Assembly: GCA_040755995.1 (NCBI GenBank)
Contig: JBFMAF010000031.1
Coordinates: 64,001-128,000 of the forward strand
DNA: 64,000 nucleotides
Origin: Acidobacteriota bacterium
GTDB taxonomy: Bacteria > Acidobacteriota > CAIWXX01
Direction of reading: 5' to 3'
Translations under genes and position numbers: made by a program
In this document: positions 25,067-39,759 of the stretch, piece by piece
How positions within the stretch are numbered: the first letter of the stretch is position 1
Layout of the letters: each line of letters starts with the position of its first letter
The notes under the pieces: generated by a model
Database searches by the model: none
What the model saw: only the letters and a program-made list of their open reading frames with translations
Told to the model about the DNA's origin: nothing

Positions 25067-27310
<2,244 letters not shown>

Positions 27311-31163: not shown

Positions 31164-31637
31164 TCACTCCTCCAGGAGCTCCTCCGGCGTGCAAATGACC
31201 GGAGGCCCGTATCCATGCCGGCGGCACGCTTCAACGATCCGCTGGCGACTGACGGCATTGGCAATATGCTTGAGATTCCAGGTGATGAGATAGTCGACGC
31301 CGTGAACAGCAGCTATCGCTACATGGATGGCTTCCGCCGCGAATTCAGATGGGATAGTGTGATCGTCGACCAGGGCCTGCGCGAGAGTGACGACATCGGA
31401 TGTAGTCTCCAGCATTGGGACCTGTTCGATGAGCTTGGCCCTCTCGCTCGCAGCCTGTTGGTCCCCATCGCGCGCCTCCTCCACCACGAGTTGAGAAATG
31501 AGCAGGTCATGGTGCTCTCGACGGCTATCCCACCATTCGTTCGTGATCCGCTGATGGGCTGCGACTAGCAGGTCACGGCTGGGCCGGGCCGCCCGGTAGC
31601 TTATCACAGTGGTTTCAATGTAGGCTTTGGGTTTCAT
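31164..31637 (-). CDS. PIN-domain (VapC-like) protein
   Basis: YIETTVISY, S.LVVEE...GD, A.HVAIA...G.DYLITWNLKHIAN, ICTPEEL motifs. Confidence 0.9.
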   Translation of the reverse strand: MKPKAYIETTVISYRAARPSRDLLVAAHQRITNEWWDSRREHHDLLISQLVVEEARDGDQQAASERAKLIEQVPMLETTSDVVTLAQALVDDHTIPSEFAAEAIHVAIAAVHGVDYLITWNLKHIANAVSRQRIVEACRRHGYGPPVICTPEELLEE

Positions 31638-31770: not shown

Positions 31771-34700
31771 CTACGGGCCGGCGTGTCTTTTCAGCGGCAG
31801 CGGCCGGGCGGCGTCGGTGACGGCGTCGATCTTCACCGCATAGCTCGTCTTCTGCGCGATGTCTTCATCCCTGACGATGTGAATGTCGAGGAGGCCGCCG
31901 GTGCGGTACCCTGTTCTGATGTGGTTCATCTCGTCGAGGCAGAGACTCCACCCGTCGAACCAGATCGTGAGCTCGCGCAGCTGCTGTTCGGTTCCGCCGA
32001 AGTGGACGAGCAGATCTATGTCGCTCTGCGGGCCCGCCGTCGCGTTCTTGGTGCTCCCGATCAGATACAGCCCCTTGACGCCGAAGCGCTCGGGATCGAG
32101 CTGGGAGGCGATGTGTTCCGCCATCTTGAGGCGCCACGCCCAGAAGTTTTCCGGCTGCCTGTCCGCGTTCTCTCTCAGGGTCGCGGGGCTTTCGAGGCGC
32201 GACGGCTCGCGGACGAGGTATCCGACTGCCTCATCGAGATCCGCGTTCATGAGCACGCGCAGCAGATGACCCTCCGAGCTCTTCGGTACATCGATCACCT
32301 TGACAACCTGCGCGAGGTGAGCGAACTCGGGGAGGAGCTCCGGCAGCACGTTGGTTGCACGCTGGAAGAACGCGTCGTTGAAGACGACTCCAGTGTCATC
32401 CGGGTAGAGCGGCAGGTAGCGAATCCGGGCCTCGACCAGGTCCTGGAAGAAGTGCGTGCCGAAGGACAGATCCGGAATGTAGTTGCCCTTCTGGCGCGCC
32501 ACCTCGATCAGGATCGCCGTGTTCGTGATGTCGGCGTAGGAGACCTTGACGCCGAGCTTGATGTCGCCACGGCTGCCCCATCTGCCCGGACCCATCAGGA
32601 TGAAACGGCGGCTCGGAAGCAGCTTGTTGAGCTTGCCGATAGCCCGCGCGACTGAAAGCAGGTCGGCCCGGTCGGCCAGTTGATCGTAGCTCTGGGGGTC
32701 GACATAGACAATGTGACTGATATCGGGAATACGCCCATTCGAAACGTACCGGCTCGCGGTGAATACGATCTTCTCCTTCGGGATGTCGTGAGGGATCGGC
32801 GCCGGCGCGGAATCCTCGAGGTAGCTCTGGGGGCGGCATTGCAAGAGGTAAAAGGCGCTTCCGTCGGAAGCGAATTCGATGTCCACGGGCGTCCCAAGCT
32901 GCTTCTCGAGCAGCTCCAGAAGTGCCTTGATCTTGGCCACGAACGGGGTTCCGGTGACAAGTCCTTCGAATGTCACCACCAGGTCTTCATTCTCGAAATC
33001 GATACCTGTCGGAAGAGGCTTGCGCATGTGGTAGCCGTCGAAGACGGATACGATCTTGTCGACCGCCGGGTACTTCTCACCATACCTTCTCAGCAGATCC
33101 CTGACTTCGATAGTCTCGAACCGGTTGGTTCTGAGATTGATCACGTCGATTCTCTTCGGAGCGTAACGCGCGACCTCATCGGGAGTCACATTGACCCGGA
33201 AGCCTATCTGTCCGGGGGCGAGCAACACCGGGAAGTCATCGCTCACTCTGTCGACCGCCCTGGTGCCCAACCCCGGGACGAGTCTCAGGAGCCCGTCCTG
33301 CTGGCGGATTCGAGGGGACCACCGGAACTCGTTTCGGCTGAAGGCGACGCCGGCGTAGGCAGGCATGAAGTAATCGCCGATGCGCGAGCCGACGACTTCC
33401 TGAACCATGATCCCCATCTCTTCGGCGAAATCGACGAGTCCGCGTTCGTGCCTGTAGCTGATCGGGTCGGGGCCGAACGTGGACGCGTAGACCTCCGCGA
33501 TGGCGTCGATCAGCGCATCGAGCCGTTCCTGTTTGCTCCCCTGGTTCGCCAGGAAGAGACTCTTGTATTTCCCCGAGAAGGACGACCCCATGCGGTCCTC
33601 GAGCAGACTGGAGCTCCGTACGATGAGAGGCAGATCCTTGAACTCGTCGAGGACCATGGAGAGCCCCTGGACCAGCTCGGTGGGCAGCGGACTGTTCTTG
33701 AATGACTGCACGATGTGCGGATACTCCAGCCGCACCTGGTGGATGTCCTTGTACTTCTGCTCGACCACCTCATTCAGGTTGTTGTAGGTGAGGAAATTGA
33801 GCAGCTCGTCGGTGGCGATGTACCATGTCCGCGGCACCTTGATGTCCGCCAGGTGCGAATGCTCGCCGGAGGCACTCTCGACGACCCGCTGCGCCAGGAA
33901 CAGGCCGCTCCCCTTGCCCCCAAGCCTGCCCTGGCTCTCCGGCGAGAAGACCAGGTGATTGAGGATCTCGTAGAAATCCTCGATCTCGATGAACTCCTTC
34001 GCCGTTCGCAGATACTGGGGCTGGCTCGACAGAAACCGCCGGATCAGCGACACCTGGACCCCCCGCCTGCTCGGCGGCGGAAGCTCCACACCCTCCGATG
34101 CGATGAGACGATAGCGCCGCAGTGCCTCGATGATGCGGACCAGAGGGAGGTTCTTGTTAATGACCTGGACGAGGAAGCTCAGCCGGTCTTCCTGTATCCA
34201 GCTCTGTATGTTGGAAAGTATCTGCTCCTCGGAAAGATGCTTCGCCGCGATGCGGAAAACCTCGTCGCTCAGCCTCTCCGTGAACGGCTGCGGGCTTTTC
34301 TGGTACGGCCGGTTGTCTTCCAACACAAGGCTCTCGTCGCGTGGGCCGGAGCCCGACGTGGACCTCTGCAGCAGCGTCTCGGCCTCCTCGGTCCCGCTCC
34401 AGCAGAGGAAGTTCAGCATGCGCCGGGATATGTTGAGGAAGAGGTTGCGGTCCGTCTGGCGCAACAGGTTCAGCGCTACACGCCACTCTTCGATTCTATG
34501 CTCCGCGACTCCGCTCCTCGCCGTCTGGAACACATGCTTCATGCGGTGGTACATGATGTAGTGGCCGAGCCGGTCCGCGATGGTATTCAGAAGCTTGGTT
34601 TCTTCCTTCAGGAACGGCCCGTGGTCGGCCTTCGGCATCTCTCTGGTGTAGTACACGCTTATTCGACCGACGGCCTTCTCCTGCAGCGTGACATCCGCGT

Positions 34701-34950
34701 ATTGGACCCACGGCGTTTCCTGGAAGCCCGGGGATGCGTGCGAGTACTCCTCGATTTCGACTCTGGCCACACAGACGTCAGGGTACTGCCATCCGGGTGG
34801 AATCGCATCTACTGTGCCGGCGCAGATCTCACCGAAGTCGGCGTCGGGTTTGCTGAGGAGCTCCTCGATCCTGTACAGACAGTTGAGCTCCTTGGCCCTC
34901 TCCGAGAGGAACCAGATCAGCTCCTTTGTCGTCTTCTCCTGGCTAGTCAT
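31771..34950 (-). CDS. GAF-like + PEP-synthase-N-type ATP-grasp + C-terminal nucleotidyltransferase fusion protein
   Basis: ERAKELNCLY...IPPGWQYP...GPFL.EE sensor; LGGKG, PLIVRSSSLLED, FSGKY.S, VDIEFA, LLQCRP; C-terminal YLIGSTKNATAGPQSDIDL (GS...DxD). Confidence 0.85.
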   Translation of the reverse strand: MTSQEKTTKELIWFLSERAKELNCLYRIEELLSKPDADFGEICAGTVDAIPPGWQYPDVCVARVEIEEYSHASPGFQETPWVQYADVTLQEKAVGRISVYYTREMPKADHGPFLKEETKLLNTIADRLGHYIMYHRMKHVFQTARSGVAEHRIEEWRVALNLLRQTDRNLFLNISRRMLNFLCWSGTEEAETLLQRSTSGSGPRDESLVLEDNRPYQKSPQPFTERLSDEVFRIAAKHLSEEQILSNIQSWIQEDRLSFLVQVINKNLPLVRIIEALRRYRLIASEGVELPPPSRRGVQVSLIRRFLSSQPQYLRTAKEFIEIEDFYEILNHLVFSPESQGRLGGKGSGLFLAQRVVESASGEHSHLADIKVPRTWYIATDELLNFLTYNNLNEVVEQKYKDIHQVRLEYPHIVQSFKNSPLPTELVQGLSMVLDEFKDLPLIVRSSSLLEDRMGSSFSGKYKSLFLANQGSKQERLDALIDAIAEVYASTFGPDPISYRHERGLVDFAEEMGIMVQEVVGSRIGDYFMPAYAGVAFSRNEFRWSPRIRQQDGLLRLVPGLGTRAVDRVSDDFPVLLAPGQIGFRVNVTPDEVARYAPKRIDVINLRTNRFETIEVRDLLRRYGEKYPAVDKIVSVFDGYHMRKPLPTGIDFENEDLVVTFEGLVTGTPFVAKIKALLELLEKQLGTPVDIEFASDGSAFYLLQCRPQSYLEDSAPAPIPHDIPKEKIVFTASRYVSNGRIPDISHIVYVDPQSYDQLADRADLLSVARAIGKLNKLLPSRRFILMGPGRWGSRGDIKLGVKVSYADITNTAILIEVARQKGNYIPDLSFGTHFFQDLVEARIRYLPLYPDDTGVVFNDAFFQRATNVLPELLPEFAHLAQVVKVIDVPKSSEGHLLRVLMNADLDEAVGYLVREPSRLESPATLRENADRQPENFWAWRLKMAEHIASQLDPERFGVKGLYLIGSTKNATAGPQSDIDLLVHFGGTEQQLRELTIWFDGWSLCLDEMNHIRTGYRTGGLLDIHIVRDEDIAQKTSYAVKIDAVTDAARPLPLKRHAGP

Positions 34951-36703
34951 GGGTGATGACTCCAAATCCTCTCCGCCCGTCGACCCGCACTTCCAGCGGC
35001 GACGGCAAGCGCACATGGCATGTCCATCCAGTCTCCTCCACAACCTCTTGCCGGCGCAGCCATTCCCAATCGATCCGGTATTGGCCCTCATGCGGAACGG
35101 AGAAATACAGGACCTGGAAGCTGGTGATATTGTGGAAGAAATGCGAGCCCTGGCTGAGCAGGAAGTTCATCTGCGGCAGCATCGACTCGACTATCACCTT
35201 GGCTCCCGAGATCTGTCCGAAATTGACCGGTATCCCGGCCGACGGGTCGGAGGTCCCCCAGCGCCCGAAACCGATGAGTACGTACGGCGCGCGTGCCGAG
35301 ATGAGTCGTCGATTCATGACCTCCAGCTCTTCGGCTATCTCGTGGGTCGCTCCCGGTACGAACGACTCCGGTTTCACGTAGATGACGTCGCGGATGGTGT
35401 CGATCCTGCCGTTTCCCATCGCAGACTGTGATGCGACCAGCGCGCGGCTTCCCGAGAGCTCGTCCGCCGTCACGTCCACTGTGCCCTGCGACACCACCAT
35501 CGGGCGGACCTGGAGGAATCCGAACCTGGCCGGCGTCCCGCGGTCGTTGTCCAGCGTCACCGCGAACTCGATCTCGACCATGCTGCCGAGGGTTTCTCCG
35601 CAGGAGCGCAGGAGAGCCTTGAGCAGCTCGTTCAAGGGGATCTCATCCAGCTTCAGGATCGGCGCGAAGTTGACCAGCCTGGCGCCACGCTCGGCAATGC
35701 CGATCACCAGCCGCTCGTCGTGCGGCCTGTAGGTCGACGCAATAAACGTCAAGCTCCCATCCTGCTCGGCATCATCGAGATGATACCTCATCATGTACTC
35801 GACTTCCTTGACGGGATCGTACACGGGGGGCGGGCCCATGTTGATCCCCCAGAAGTCCCTCTGGCTCTGCTCGAGAAGTTCGTCCAGGGTGTTGTACGGA
35901 GGGTTCGACTGCGGGTAGGCGGGGGAGTACGTCCACGCCGTCCCGTCGTCAACGATCATCTTGCCGAGGCCCAGCGCAAGGTCGATGACCCCGTCTTCCG
36001 GCTTCGCGTGCCCGAGCGGGTAGAAGTTGTAGCTCCGCGCGACCCCGGAGATGTGCGGATAGAAGCGTTCCTCATGCCGGCACCCGACGACCTCCTGGAC
36101 GATCACAGCCATCTTGTCGCCCGTATCTCCGTGCCTGGTCGCCTGTAGGTAGTTCCGGGCGCCTTTGAAGTACGTAGACGCGTACACGTACTTGACCGCC
36201 TCTATCAACCGGCGGAAACGAATATCCGTGTCGTGCTGGTTGTTCGGGATCATCTTGGTCTTGTAGACGCTTGCGAAGGGCTCGAACATGGCGTCTTCGA
36301 GCATGCTGGATGAGCGGACCGCGAGCGGAGTGTGGACCTGCGCGATCAGAGCGCGGAGATCACCAACTAGCTGCGCGGGAAGGGCGGCTCTCTGGAATGC
36401 GAGCGCCTTCTGGTCGTCGCGCAGATCCGAGCCCGCAACATCGAAGAGATCGTTTTGCTTCATGAAGAGATCGAAGAAATCGGTGCCGATGACCGTGAGG
36501 GTAGGGATGTTGACGATCATCCGAGGCTCGAACAGCGGCGCGATTCGCTTCTCCAACAGATCCTTCATCCTCGCCAGCCCCTGCGCCTTGCCCCCGATCG
36601 AACCGCCGCCGATGCGCGTGAACCTCTCCCGCCCAGTGAAGAACTGCCGATCAAAGGCCTGAAGCGTAGGGCTCTGACTGACGATTCTATTTCCGCCGTT
36701 CAT
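34943..36703 (-). CDS. PEP-synthase/PPDK N-terminal-type ATP-grasp protein
   Basis: IGGKAQGL, PLAVRSSSMLED, MAVIVQEVVG, VEIEFAV, FLQVRP, GRWGT, GSHFF. 8 bp overlap with the downstream gene. Confidence 0.85.
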   Translation of the reverse strand: MNGGNRIVSQSPTLQAFDRQFFTGRERFTRIGGGSIGGKAQGLARMKDLLEKRIAPLFEPRMIVNIPTLTVIGTDFFDLFMKQNDLFDVAGSDLRDDQKALAFQRAALPAQLVGDLRALIAQVHTPLAVRSSSMLEDAMFEPFASVYKTKMIPNNQHDTDIRFRRLIEAVKYVYASTYFKGARNYLQATRHGDTGDKMAVIVQEVVGCRHEERFYPHISGVARSYNFYPLGHAKPEDGVIDLALGLGKMIVDDGTAWTYSPAYPQSNPPYNTLDELLEQSQRDFWGINMGPPPVYDPVKEVEYMMRYHLDDAEQDGSLTFIASTYRPHDERLVIGIAERGARLVNFAPILKLDEIPLNELLKALLRSCGETLGSMVEIEFAVTLDNDRGTPARFGFLQVRPMVVSQGTVDVTADELSGSRALVASQSAMGNGRIDTIRDVIYVKPESFVPGATHEIAEELEVMNRRLISARAPYVLIGFGRWGTSDPSAGIPVNFGQISGAKVIVESMLPQMNFLLSQGSHFFHNITSFQVLYFSVPHEGQYRIDWEWLRRQEVVEETGWTCHVRLPSPLEVRVDGRRGFGVITHD

Positions 36704-36745
36704 GGTGAATCGTCCGACTCCGCTTCGGACTCTCCTGGAAAACCC

Positions 36746-36843
36746 CCGTCAGTTCGCATGTCTGATTCCGCACTCCGCACTCCGCATTCGGCAAGCCACC
36801 GTCAGGTCGCAGGTCTGATTCCGCACTCCGCATTCCGCATTCG
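36746..36843. repeat. Tandem 45-bp direct repeat containing TCCGCAY heptamers
   Basis: Copies at 36746-36790 and 36799-36843, 42/45 identical by manual comparison. Confidence 0.85.
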
Positions 36844-36845
36844 CC

Positions 36846-38132
36846 TCACACCCACCCTCGCTCGCGACATGCCTGGGCGACACGGGAAACGGCGATAACA
36901 TTGGCTGCGTCCCGCATGTACAGGCCCTTCTTCTTTGCCAGCTCACGGACCGCATGAAAGGCCGACGTTATCTTCAGATCGAGCTTGCCGAACACTTCAT
37001 CCTGTTCCCAGAAGTAGTTCGCGTTGCCCTGCACCTGCTCGAAGTAGCTGCAGATGACGCCGCCGGAATTGGCGAGGATGTCCGGGATCAGGAACAGACC
37101 CCGATCGTGGATGACTCGATCGGCCTCGGGAGTAGTCGGGCCGTTGGCCCCCTCGATGATCAACTTCACCCTGCTGGACATGCGTCCCACGTTGTCAGCG
37201 GTGATCTGCTGCTCGATGGCCGCAGGAATGAGAATGTCGGCGTCCTGTTCGATCCATTGCTCCCCCGCCAGCACTTCGTAGCCCAGACCAGCCGCTTTCG
37301 CCCTGTCGATGCCGCCGAAGCGGTCGGTGATACCGGCCAGCTCGTCGTAGTCGATTCCTTCGGGCTTCCGGAACGCGTATGAGGTCTGGTCGCTCTGGTC
37401 CCAGCAAGAAACGCAGACCACCTTGCCCCCGATCTGCTGGTAGAGACGAACGGCGTGCTGGGCGACGTGACCGAATCCCTGAACGCTAGCCGCCGTCGAC
37501 TCGGGGGCAAGGCCGAGCTCCTTGAGGGCCTCGCGCGCGGCGAAGACGACGCCGAAGCCAGCGGCTTCGCGCCGCCCCTGCGACCCGCCGAGGCTCACGG
37601 GCTTACCCGTGATGAATCCGGGGCGCTTCTCGCCCTGAATCGTCTCGAACTCGTCGAGCATCCACAGCATGTACTGGGGACTGGTCATGAGATCTGGTGC
37701 CGCGACGTCGATGGAAGGGCCCAGATCCCTTGAAAGGCGACGCACCCATCCCCGGCAGACCCGCTCCTGCTCCCACAGCGACAGGTTATGCGGGTCGCAA
37801 ACGACACCGCCATTGCTGCCGCCCAAAGGAATGTCCACCAGCGCACATTCCCAGGTCATCCACATGGCCATGGCCCGGACGGTGTCGAGGGTCTCCTGCG
37901 GGTGGAATCGGATACCGCCCTTGGCGGGGCCCCTTGAGTCGTTGTGGACAACGCGAAATCCCCTGAAGATTCGTGGGCGGCCGTCGTCCATGCGCACCGG
38001 GATCGTGAACTGGTGCTCTCGCACGGGAGTGCGGAGCATCTCGCGGGTCACCTCATCTAGTCCAAGCAAGTCCAGCGTCTTGTCGAGCTGCGATTGGGCC
38101 ATGTCAAATGGCGTGGATGTCCTGGCGGCCAT
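36846..38132 (-). CDS. Glu/Leu/Phe/Val dehydrogenase homologue with substituted catalytic lysines
   Basis: GPAKGGIRFHP, APD, TGKP, EGANGP, PDILANSGGV present, but MTWEC (family MTWKC) and GGSNGG (family GGGKGG). GAAAGG RBS. Confidence 0.88.
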   Translation of the reverse strand: MAARTSTPFDMAQSQLDKTLDLLGLDEVTREMLRTPVREHQFTIPVRMDDGRPRIFRGFRVVHNDSRGPAKGGIRFHPQETLDTVRAMAMWMTWECALVDIPLGGSNGGVVCDPHNLSLWEQERVCRGWVRRLSRDLGPSIDVAAPDLMTSPQYMLWMLDEFETIQGEKRPGFITGKPVSLGGSQGRREAAGFGVVFAAREALKELGLAPESTAASVQGFGHVAQHAVRLYQQIGGKVVCVSCWDQSDQTSYAFRKPEGIDYDELAGITDRFGGIDRAKAAGLGYEVLAGEQWIEQDADILIPAAIEQQITADNVGRMSSRVKLIIEGANGPTTPEADRVIHDRGLFLIPDILANSGGVICSYFEQVQGNANYFWEQDEVFGKLDLKITSAFHAVRELAKKKGLYMRDAANVIAVSRVAQACRERGWV

Positions 38133-38179
38133 TCGTATTTTCCTTTCAAAGAATCTCGCGGGCGATCGACCGCTTTCGC

Positions 38180-38231
38180 GAACACGACCTGTCGTGTTCC
38201 AGACGATAGCGCCAGCCCCTGCAATTGTCAA
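38180..38231 (-). promoter_or_regulatory. Promoter of the GDH paralogue with a perfect palindromic operator candidate
   Basis: Minus strand TTGACA (38231-38226) -17 bp- TATCGT. GAACACGAC-CT-GTCGTGTTC at 38180-38199. Confidence 0.6.
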
Positions 38232-38397
38232 AGAAAAGATGGCCTCGGGAGTCTTGGTTTTTTATCAGAAGCCAAACGAAAACCAAATAATTTCCAAACA
38301 AAACTCGCGTATGTATGCGGATTGTCCTTATGAAGGGGCTTGCGCGCGTAGTGATTCGATCCACATTCCTCATTTACAAATCCTAAGGAGTGATTGC

Positions 38398-39759
38398 ATG
38401 AACAGTTTCGTCTCCGATTTCATGGCCGCGGTGAAAGCCAAGAACCCGGCCGAACCCGAGTTCCACCAGGCTGTATTCGAAGTCGTCAGCTCAGTGGCAC
38501 TCGTGATCGAGAAGAACCCCGAGTACCGCAAGGCGAAGATCATGGAACGCATCGCCGAGCCGGAGCGCGTGATCATGTTCCGCGTTCCCTGGATGGACGA
38601 CGCCGGCGAGATCCATGTCAACCGTGGCTACCGCATCGAAATGAGCAGCGCCATCGGGCCGTACAAGGGCGGGCTGCGCTTCCACCCGACAGTGACGTTG
38701 GGCATCCTGAAGTTCCTGGCATACGAGCAGGTCTTCAAGAACAGCCTGACGGGACTCCCGATGGGTGGCGGAAAAGGAGGCTGCGATTTTGACCCTAAGG
38801 GCAAGAGCGACTACGAAGTGATGCGCCTCTGCCAGAGCTTCATGAATGAGCTCTTCAGACACATCGGGCCCGATACGGACGTGCCCGCGGGAGACATCGG
38901 CGTGGGAGGGCGAGAGATAGGGTACCTGTTCGGCCAGTACAAGAAGCTCCGCAACGAGTTCACCGGCGTCCTCACCGGCAAGGGCCTGGATTGGGGCGGC
39001 TCGCTAATCCGCCCGGAAGCCACAGGCTACGGCGCCACCTACTTCGCAGCAGAGATGCTCGGCACGCGAAACCAGACTCTGCAGGGCAAGACCTGCCTCG
39101 TGTCCGGAAGCGGCAACGTCGCCCAATACACGGTCGAGAAGATCAACCAGCTCGGCGGAAGAGCTGTGACACTCTCTGATTCGAACGGCTATATCTACGA
39201 TCCGGAGGGAATCGACGCCAAGAAGCTCGAGTTCGTCATGGATCTCAAGAACATCCGGCGCGGCAGAATCAAGGAGTATACCGACAAGTACAAGAGCGCC
39301 ACGTTCATCCCGCTGAAGCCGGGCCTGGACTACAACCCGCTCTGGGACCACAAGGCGGACTGTGCCTTCCCCAGCGCGACGCAGAACGAGATCAACGGGA
39401 AGGACGCCGAACACCTGGTCAAGAACGGCGTCTACGTCGTCGCCGAAGGCGCCAACATGCCGACGACACCTGAGGGCATCGAGGTTTTCCTGAATGCCAA
39501 GATCCTCTACGGGCCGGGCAAGGCCGCCAACGCCGGCGGTGTAGCCACCTCCGGTCTCGAAATGTCCCAGAACAGCCTGCGCCTGAGCTGGACTCGCGAA
39601 GAGGTTGACAGCCGGTTGCACCAGATAATGAAGAACATCCACAAGACCTGTGTGGAGGCCGCCGCCGCCTATGGCACGCCAGGCAACTACGTCAACGGGG
39701 CCAACATCGGTGGGTTCCTCAAGGTCGCCAGGGCCATGATGGACCAGGGCCTCGTCTAG
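38398..39759 (+). CDS. gdhA: NADP-specific glutamate dehydrogenase
   Basis: EPEFHQAV, GPYKGGLRFHP, EQVFKNSL, GGGKGG, DVPAGDIG, RPEATGYG, SGSGNVA. AAGGAG RBS. Confidence 0.96.
   Translation: MNSFVSDFMAAVKAKNPAEPEFHQAVFEVVSSVALVIEKNPEYRKAKIMERIAEPERVIMFRVPWMDDAGEIHVNRGYRIEMSSAIGPYKGGLRFHPTVTLGILKFLAYEQVFKNSLTGLPMGGGKGGCDFDPKGKSDYEVMRLCQSFMNELFRHIGPDTDVPAGDIGVGGREIGYLFGQYKKLRNEFTGVLTGKGLDWGGSLIRPEATGYGATYFAAEMLGTRNQTLQGKTCLVSGSGNVAQYTVEKINQLGGRAVTLSDSNGYIYDPEGIDAKKLEFVMDLKNIRRGRIKEYTDKYKSATFIPLKPGLDYNPLWDHKADCAFPSATQNEINGKDAEHLVKNGVYVVAEGANMPTTPEGIEVFLNAKILYGPGKAANAGGVATSGLEMSQNSLRLSWTREEVDSRLHQIMKNIHKTCVEAAAAYGTPGNYVNGANIGGFLKVARAMMDQGLV

Follow-up and report, generated by a model that had tools for sequence, protein, structure and literature searches.

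We describe a widely conserved and apparently undescribed system that links what is probably a swivelling-histidine dikinase of new architecture to glutamate dehydrogenase (GDH). It is encoded in a 64,000-nucleotide window of an Acidobacteriota genome (GCA_040755995.1, contig JBFMAF010000031.1, positions 64,001 to 128,000; coordinates below are those of the window). The system is assembled from known folds, and here it includes a GDH paralogue that appears catalytically impaired (pseudo-GDH) and lacks the phosphoesterase usual in its relatives. A literature search found no description of this ATP-grasp family together with gdh. We tentatively favor, at slightly less than an even chance, signal-gated autophosphorylation of a histidine followed by phosphate transfer to GDH, with pseudo-GDH as a regulatory or docking subunit. 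The locus comprises four real genes, gdhA on the plus strand diverging from three genes on the minus strand:

38398-39759, plus strand: gdhA, family-I NADP-type GDH, 453 aa, active-site lysines present
38133-38397, no strand: shared AT-rich intergenic region, 265 bp, GC 0.47 versus 0.63 for the genome
38262-38291, plus strand: sigma-70-like site, TTATCA-18-AATAAT, consensus match only
38231-38203, minus strand: sigma-70-like site, TTGACA-17-TATCGT, consensus match only
36846-38132, minus strand: pseudo-GDH, family-II fold, 428 aa, K95E and K107N against Thermococcus GDH 1euz
34943-36703, minus strand: ATP-grasp 1, 586 aa, PPDK_N (residues 35-407) and tail, N-terminal sensor absent
34946-35461, minus strand: tail of ATP-grasp 1, residues 415-586, predicted swivelling beta/beta/alpha domain
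31771-34950, minus strand: ATP-grasp 2, 1059 aa, with GAF-like domain, middle domain, PPDK_N, tail and nucleotidyltransferase (NTase)
34531-34926, minus strand: GAF-like domain of ATP-grasp 2, residues 9-140, weak Pfam support in relatives
33952-34506, minus strand: middle domain of ATP-grasp 2, residues 149-333, specific to the ATP-grasp 2 type
32203-32796, minus strand: tail of ATP-grasp 2, residues 719-916, with GRWG and SFGTHFFQ, fold inferred from alignment to the first tail
31786-32166, minus strand: Pol-beta-type minimal NTase of ATP-grasp 2, residues 929-1055, NTP_transf_2

The two ATP-grasp proteins have a dikinase-like core. Pfam identifies PPDK_N in ATP-grasp 1 (109 bits) and ATP-grasp 2 (201 bits), with ATP-site motifs present, and the proteins are 27% identical over 535 columns that cover the tail. 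Neither has a Pfam match to PEP-utilizers or PEP-utilizers_C. The phosphoenolpyruvate (PEP)/pyruvate-binding barrel that characterizes PEP synthase (PEPS) and PPDK was found in neither, and the model of the 586-aa ATP-grasp 1 contains just the ATP-grasp domain and the tail. The NCBIfam models for PEP synthase and PPDK score 57-63 bits against cut-offs of 598-740, about a tenth. In a FastTree of 34 ATP-grasp domains, a quick tree to which a long-branch warning applies, the gdh-linked family separates from the genome's seven PEPS/PPDK-like domains (support 99). ATP-grasp 2 forms its own clade there, and ATP-grasp 1 falls among receiver-type and Bacteroidales proteins. Because the barrel is absent, the NCBIfam scores are low and the tree branch is separate, these are not ordinary PEP synthases, as a preliminary description of this DNA had argued. 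Database names such as 'pyruvate, water dikinase' for relatives derive from the N-terminal domain alone. The genome also contains about eight other PPDK_N genes, whose swivel domains are of the ordinary kind (contigs C7, C19, C26, C34, C49, C55; L103-L114); such a set is unusually large.

Both proteins end in the tails that had been noticed at the outset, with GRWG at residues 480 (ATP-grasp 1) and 789 (ATP-grasp 2) and HFF at 521 and 833. The histidine of the latter motif is almost invariant: His521 (codon 35141-35143) is retained in 147 of 149 aligned rows and His833 (codon 32452-32454) in all 100. His521 opens a predicted helix (521-528), as the conserved histidine of swivelling-His dikinases (PEPS, PPDK, RPH, HpeHI, GWD) does at the start of the carrier helix, and it would correspond to His825 of rifampin phosphotransferase (RPH), judging from spacing. 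Predicted-fold matches of ATP-grasp 1 likewise point to known swivel dikinases. The HFF histidine most likely serves as phospho-His in a divergent form of the swivel domain. The preliminary description had stressed the lack of TSHAA. This is literally right, since neither sequence contains a TSH motif; nevertheless, a phospho-His carrier is probably present because the tail is predicted to be of the swivel type.

The family differs from the dikinases it most resembles. RPH and HpeHI have a TSHAA motif and a rifampin- or aromatic-binding domain; the tails here have GRWG and SxG[ST]HFF, and no such binding domain was recognized in ATP-grasp 1 or 2. Furthermore, ATP-grasp and tail are adjacent in this family, GAF-like, receiver and NTase domains are fused to it, and it is gdh-linked. 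PTS Enzyme I takes its phosphate from PEP through a barrel, whereas the ATP-grasp domain would be the donor site here. Swivel dikinases are known to act on small molecules and to be split over two proteins in some cases (PMC12167813; PMC4844700); in HpeHI, a two-component dikinase, the acceptor site lies on another polypeptide. Such precedents, together with the predicted-fold matches, which are to small-molecule swivel dikinases, would fit a metabolic two-component dikinase. Its swivel histidine would phosphorylate a small molecule (2-oxoglutarate, glutamate, pyruvate or a similar acid) bound in the cleft of GDH or in domain 149-333, so that ATP is tied to a step at the GDH node. We consider this unlikely: exchangeable GAF-like and receiver N-termini, together with an NTase and a phosphoesterase, are more in keeping with a regulator, the genome carries its own PEPS/PPDK-like genes, and ATP-grasp 1 consists of ATP-grasp and tail alone.

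Linkage to gdh is tight, as the neighborhood survey proposed in the preliminary description shows. Our locus counts refer to the best 80 of at least 593 confirmed relatives found with ATP-grasp 2 in species genomes. The cassette has a family-II GDH gene next to it in 69 of these 80 loci. Among the 11 loci without an adjacent GDH, nine have DNA that starts no more than about 600 bases from the cassette; two (L031 and L033) have more flanking DNA, yet no gdh match. ATP-grasp 1 is present in 61 of the 80 loci, and fused forms of 1630 aa occur. We also took a sample that was not chosen by cassette similarity, comprising 61 same-phylum genomes, from which three ATP-grasp rows with E > 1e-12 were dropped (59 of 62 left). 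Here, 48 of 59 family matches lie within 6 kb of a gdh match, in 26 of 29 genomes, and most misses are on small contigs. The 114 GDH rows of this sample include 25 with at least 59% identity to the paralogue, all in family-bearing genomes and 19 of them within 6 kb of the family. The corresponding counts within 6 kb are 3 of 60 for other family-II GDH rows and 20 of 29 for family-I-like rows; note that the class borders were drawn after inspection of the list, so that one or two rows are possibly misplaced, and that 2 of the 60 rows come from an unpublished genome (G025).

The cassette family occurs in many bacterial phyla, including gut Bacteroidales. Parabacteroides distasonis and Phocaeicola massiliensis have a receiver-type gene of 984-985 aa (40% identical to ATP-grasp 1, with GRWG and SQGTHFF). 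It diverges from one gdh and converges with another, downstream of which it lies. A Prevotella record has no gdh within 6 kb of its family member. In P. distasonis, the genes that separate the family member from the second gdh (L115:7824-11035) are annotated as endonuclease/exonuclease/phosphatase, nucleotidyltransferase and RapZ-like; they are not conserved in Phocaeicola. The Bacteroidales-type gene also appears in two 'Bacteriophage sp.' records, L118 (MT835811.1) and MT835667.1, which may be chromosomal fragments. A third, divergent ATP-grasp type (21-23% identity) is encoded near pseudo-GDH cassettes; the arginine of LQxRP is gone from it, and its tail has two histidine motifs, GSHF and GTHF (L003:13406-15073, L004:13427-15112, L005:2101-3762, L010:261-1949).

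The name pseudo-GDH, used in the preliminary description, suits the paralogue. Aligned with 1euz, it has K107N (the GGxKGG lysine; codon 37812-37814) and K95E (codon 37848-37850) while retaining K71, D147 and the GxGxxG glycine G219. We take K107 to be the catalytic lysine of GDH and K95 a carboxyl-binding lysine. With only K71 of the three left, the protein lacks the full lysine set of active Glu/Leu/Phe/Val dehydrogenases. In contrast, the divergent gdhA matches NCBIfam PRK09414 at 739 bits (cut-off 536) and has K90, K114, K126 and D166. However, a dead copy is not the rule. Our alignment of cassette GDHs has 71 rows (70 different), and 60 of these have K71, K95 and K107; the K107-less GDH is therefore a variant of the cassette. 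Loss of K107 affects 11 of 71 rows, the window copy included, with six different replacements (N, S, Y, A, M, G). In these 11 pseudo rows, G219 is kept in 11, K71 in 10 and K95 in 8. On a quick tree, one change is enough to explain the loss, but with a support of 22, so a single origin is no more than possible.

These copies do not look like debris. If the paralogue were a decaying duplicate and the cassette-gdh link reflected shared regulation only, the longer branches of the pseudo rows, the varied residue 107 and the two intact GDHs in this genome would be readily explained. But pseudo copies are full-length open frames, 50-71% identical, that come from Acidobacteriota, Aminicenantes, one Planctomycetota record and Bacillota-labelled records, and their start signals are intact. 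Loss is concentrated at K107 (0 of 11 retained), while the window pseudo-GDH matches 176 of the 195 columns in which conservation among intact rows is 95% or more. Decay is thus very improbable, and the sequence comparison supports a catalytically impaired GDH maintained under constraint.

The genomic context of pseudo-GDH also bears on its partner. The preliminary description had named the divergent gdhA, which does adjoin the cassette here. Yet family-I gdhA is near just 3 of 57 intact-GDH loci, compared with 8 of the 10 remaining pseudo loci (two truncated at the edge) within the fetched flank, a contrast that kinship inflates. The intact sister of pseudo-GDH (C41:88844-90130) is 63% identical to it and the adjacent gdhA 31%, and this sister, elsewhere in the genome, may be the closer partner. 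It belongs to a second copy of the cassette (C41:88844-93090; L001:8845-13091), in which an intact family-II GDH gene is followed by a 917-aa GAF-like/ATP-grasp/tail protein without an NTase. We searched 5 of the 10 other pseudo-locus genomes; all five have, at another site, an intact GDH from this clade, and all have a family-I gdh gene, which is split into two frames in one of them. Since this genome has the same set, a K107-less copy and an intact sister coexist in six of six genomes examined. Cassette-clade GDHs also share 5-6 extra residues (CWDxxD..Y) in the cofactor domain (pseudo-GDH residues 243-252, window 37377-37406); this insertion, missing from 1euz, is a candidate docking surface.

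A catalytically inactive GDH homologue beside an active GDH, kept for regulation, has a likeness in the GdhA/GdhB/APRTh system of Thermus thermophilus and in ADLP. In Thermus, inactive GdhA co-assembles with GdhB (PMC9570180; 10.1101/2025.10.31.685773). As in Thermus, the GDH fold is retained here, a catalytic residue is lost, and an active GDH is encoded in the same genome. The differences are that control in the Thermus and ADLP excerpts is allosteric (leucine, AMP, NAD+), with no ATP-grasp, His-carrier or NTase partner named in them, and that the adjacent active GDH here is of another family, with the intact sister on another contig.

The accessory domains of ATP-grasp 2 were proposed in the preliminary description as a sensor and a nucleotidyltransferase. 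The GAF-like call is weak: Pfam GAF matches at E <= 0.1 in 13 of 42 aligned relatives (best 3.8e-5), but not in the window's own domain, and a PDB profile search with this domain returned only a repeat artefact. A 36% identical GAF-like domain occurs in a histidine-kinase-like open reading frame (ORF) on another contig (C37:282211-285024; L002:5209-8025), which by eye sits in a CheR/CheB-like cluster. The middle domain, for which every Pfam family matches at most 1 of 42 members, is a candidate docking domain. The NTase passes the Pfam cut-off for NTP_transf_2 (27.4 versus 21 bits), and its G965-S966, D977, D979 and D1022 are retained in 98-99 of 100 rows. Its best PDB sequence matches are minimal NTases and the protein-adenylylating MntA. 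GlnD and GlnE are absent from the 16 NCBIfam matches at E <= 0.01, where only MntA appears (18 bits versus a cut-off of 60). The NTase is, however, accessory: neither ATP-grasp 1 nor the C41 copy has one, nor do the scanned relatives of the receiver type. Nucleotidylation is thus not the shared chemistry of the family, and the NTase is an added layer.

A metallophosphoesterase gene (motifs DLHG, GGD, GNDD and GHxHE; for example, L017:1562-2854 and 49 further loci) is present in 50 of 80 loci, in 44 of the 65 that extend 1.5 kb or more downstream and in 9 of 10 pseudo loci, nearly always convergent and immediately after ATP-grasp 2. With the conserved NTase aspartates, the matches to minimal NTases and MntA, and a tyrosine (Y411) found in 5 of 11 pseudo rows against at least 95% of intact ones, this gene would suit a switch like GlnD/GlnE, in which the NTase writes a nucleoside monophosphate on GDH, the phosphoesterase erases it and the dikinase modules gate the NTase. 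GlnD and GlnE act on PII and glutamine synthetase, and the likeness lies in the Pol-beta NTase motif, the nitrogen-assimilation context and the candidate eraser of most relatives. Nevertheless, ATP-grasp 2 fuses a minimal, stand-alone-type NTase domain to a dikinase and has no GlnD/GlnE NCBIfam match. Proteins that have no NTase (ATP-grasp 1, the C41 copy, receiver-type relatives) are gdh-linked too, and the present genome has the NTase but no match to a hidden Markov model of the phosphoesterase at E <= 1e-5. We regard such a switch as quite unlikely to be the main function.

Signaling could also run in the opposite direction. Receiver domains are carried by longer relatives; among 14 relatives scanned, Response_reg occurs with DUF5752 in 5 and alone in one. 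Response-regulator-like and kinase-like ORFs are each found near 8 of 80 loci, and a histidine-kinase-like ORF contains a counterpart of the GAF-like domain. The nucleotide motif persists in pseudo copies, as K71 and K95 mostly do, and ADLP, a lysine-less dehydrogenase, senses NAD+ for another enzyme. The GDH-fold protein might accordingly be an input: on sensing glutamate, 2-oxoglutarate or NAD(P)H it would switch the dikinases, the phospho-His then feeding other proteins (receiver domains, the NTase or a transcription regulator) and pseudo-GDH being a pure sensor. This, too, is improbable: sensor-type domains are already fused N-terminally, which places the dikinase core at the output end, and among the recurring neighbors of the 80 loci there is no conserved output gene besides gdh and the phosphoesterase.

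In the mechanism that we favor, the ATP-grasp proteins would phosphorylate the tail histidine from ATP, yielding AMP, Pi and a beta-phospho-His by analogy with RPH and PPDK. The domain architecture suggests that the GAF-like domain, or receiver domains in relatives, gates this reaction. Phosphate would then pass from the tail histidine to a GDH protein. This is the weakest step; GDH would be the acceptor because no acceptor domain was recognized in the ATP-grasp proteins. A further, reversible layer may come from the NTase and, in most relatives, the convergent metallophosphoesterase. The simplest partner of pseudo-GDH in a mixed hexamer would be its 63% identical C41 sister and not the 31% identical gdhA, much as Thermus GdhA assembles with GdhB. 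ATP-grasp 1 may serve gdhA, as it nests among receiver-type proteins that neighbor family-I gdh genes. The tree therefore suggests two pairings, the ATP-grasp 2 clade with family-II GDH, and family-I gdh with the ATP-grasp 1/receiver type; this locus would have both. The ATP-site motifs, the conserved histidine, the linkage and the K107 loss are in the sequence; the swivel fold is predicted. A more specific proposal, that this is a protein dikinase whose ATP-grasp/His-swivel unit moves the beta-phosphate of ATP to GDH under GAF or receiver control, with a GDH-fold subunit as the missing acceptor domain and the NTase/phosphoesterase pair as a second layer, is possible but doubtful.

The layout of the minus-strand unit was described accurately from the start: three genes share the AT-rich region with an intact gdhA, and ATP-grasp 1 and ATP-grasp 2 have 8 bp in common (34943-34950; minus strand, ATGACTAG). 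The two sigma-70-like sites in 38133-38397 stand back-to-back, one per strand, compared with 0.4 +/- 0.7 in shuffles. A repeat of about 26 bases occurs in two copies between pseudo-GDH and ATP-grasp 1 (36755-36840). Directly after ATP-grasp 2, where relatives have the phosphoesterase, lies a 157-aa ORF (31164-31637, minus strand) with no Pfam match, which by eye resembles a PIN-domain protein. A 747-aa membrane protein is encoded 4.5 kb from the cassette (25067-27310, minus strand); its motifs resemble those of an ion-pumping pyrophosphatase.

GDH stands where carbon metabolism meets nitrogen metabolism, and the family tied to it is large (801 representatives at 50% identity, E <= 1e-30) and mislabelled as PEP synthase in databases. 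In Bacteroides fragilis, reversible GDH inactivation was reportedly observed in the 1980s. For gdhA of B. thetaiotaomicron, activity in E. coli reportedly required a 3-kb segment downstream of the gene. If the protein-dikinase proposal is true, a family member would be the likely 'trans-acting gene downstream of gdhA' reported for that species in 1996 (Baggio and Morrison, J Bacteriol 178:7212). The protein dikinase, if real, would constitute a new class of signalling enzymes that modify proteins, spread through many phyla.

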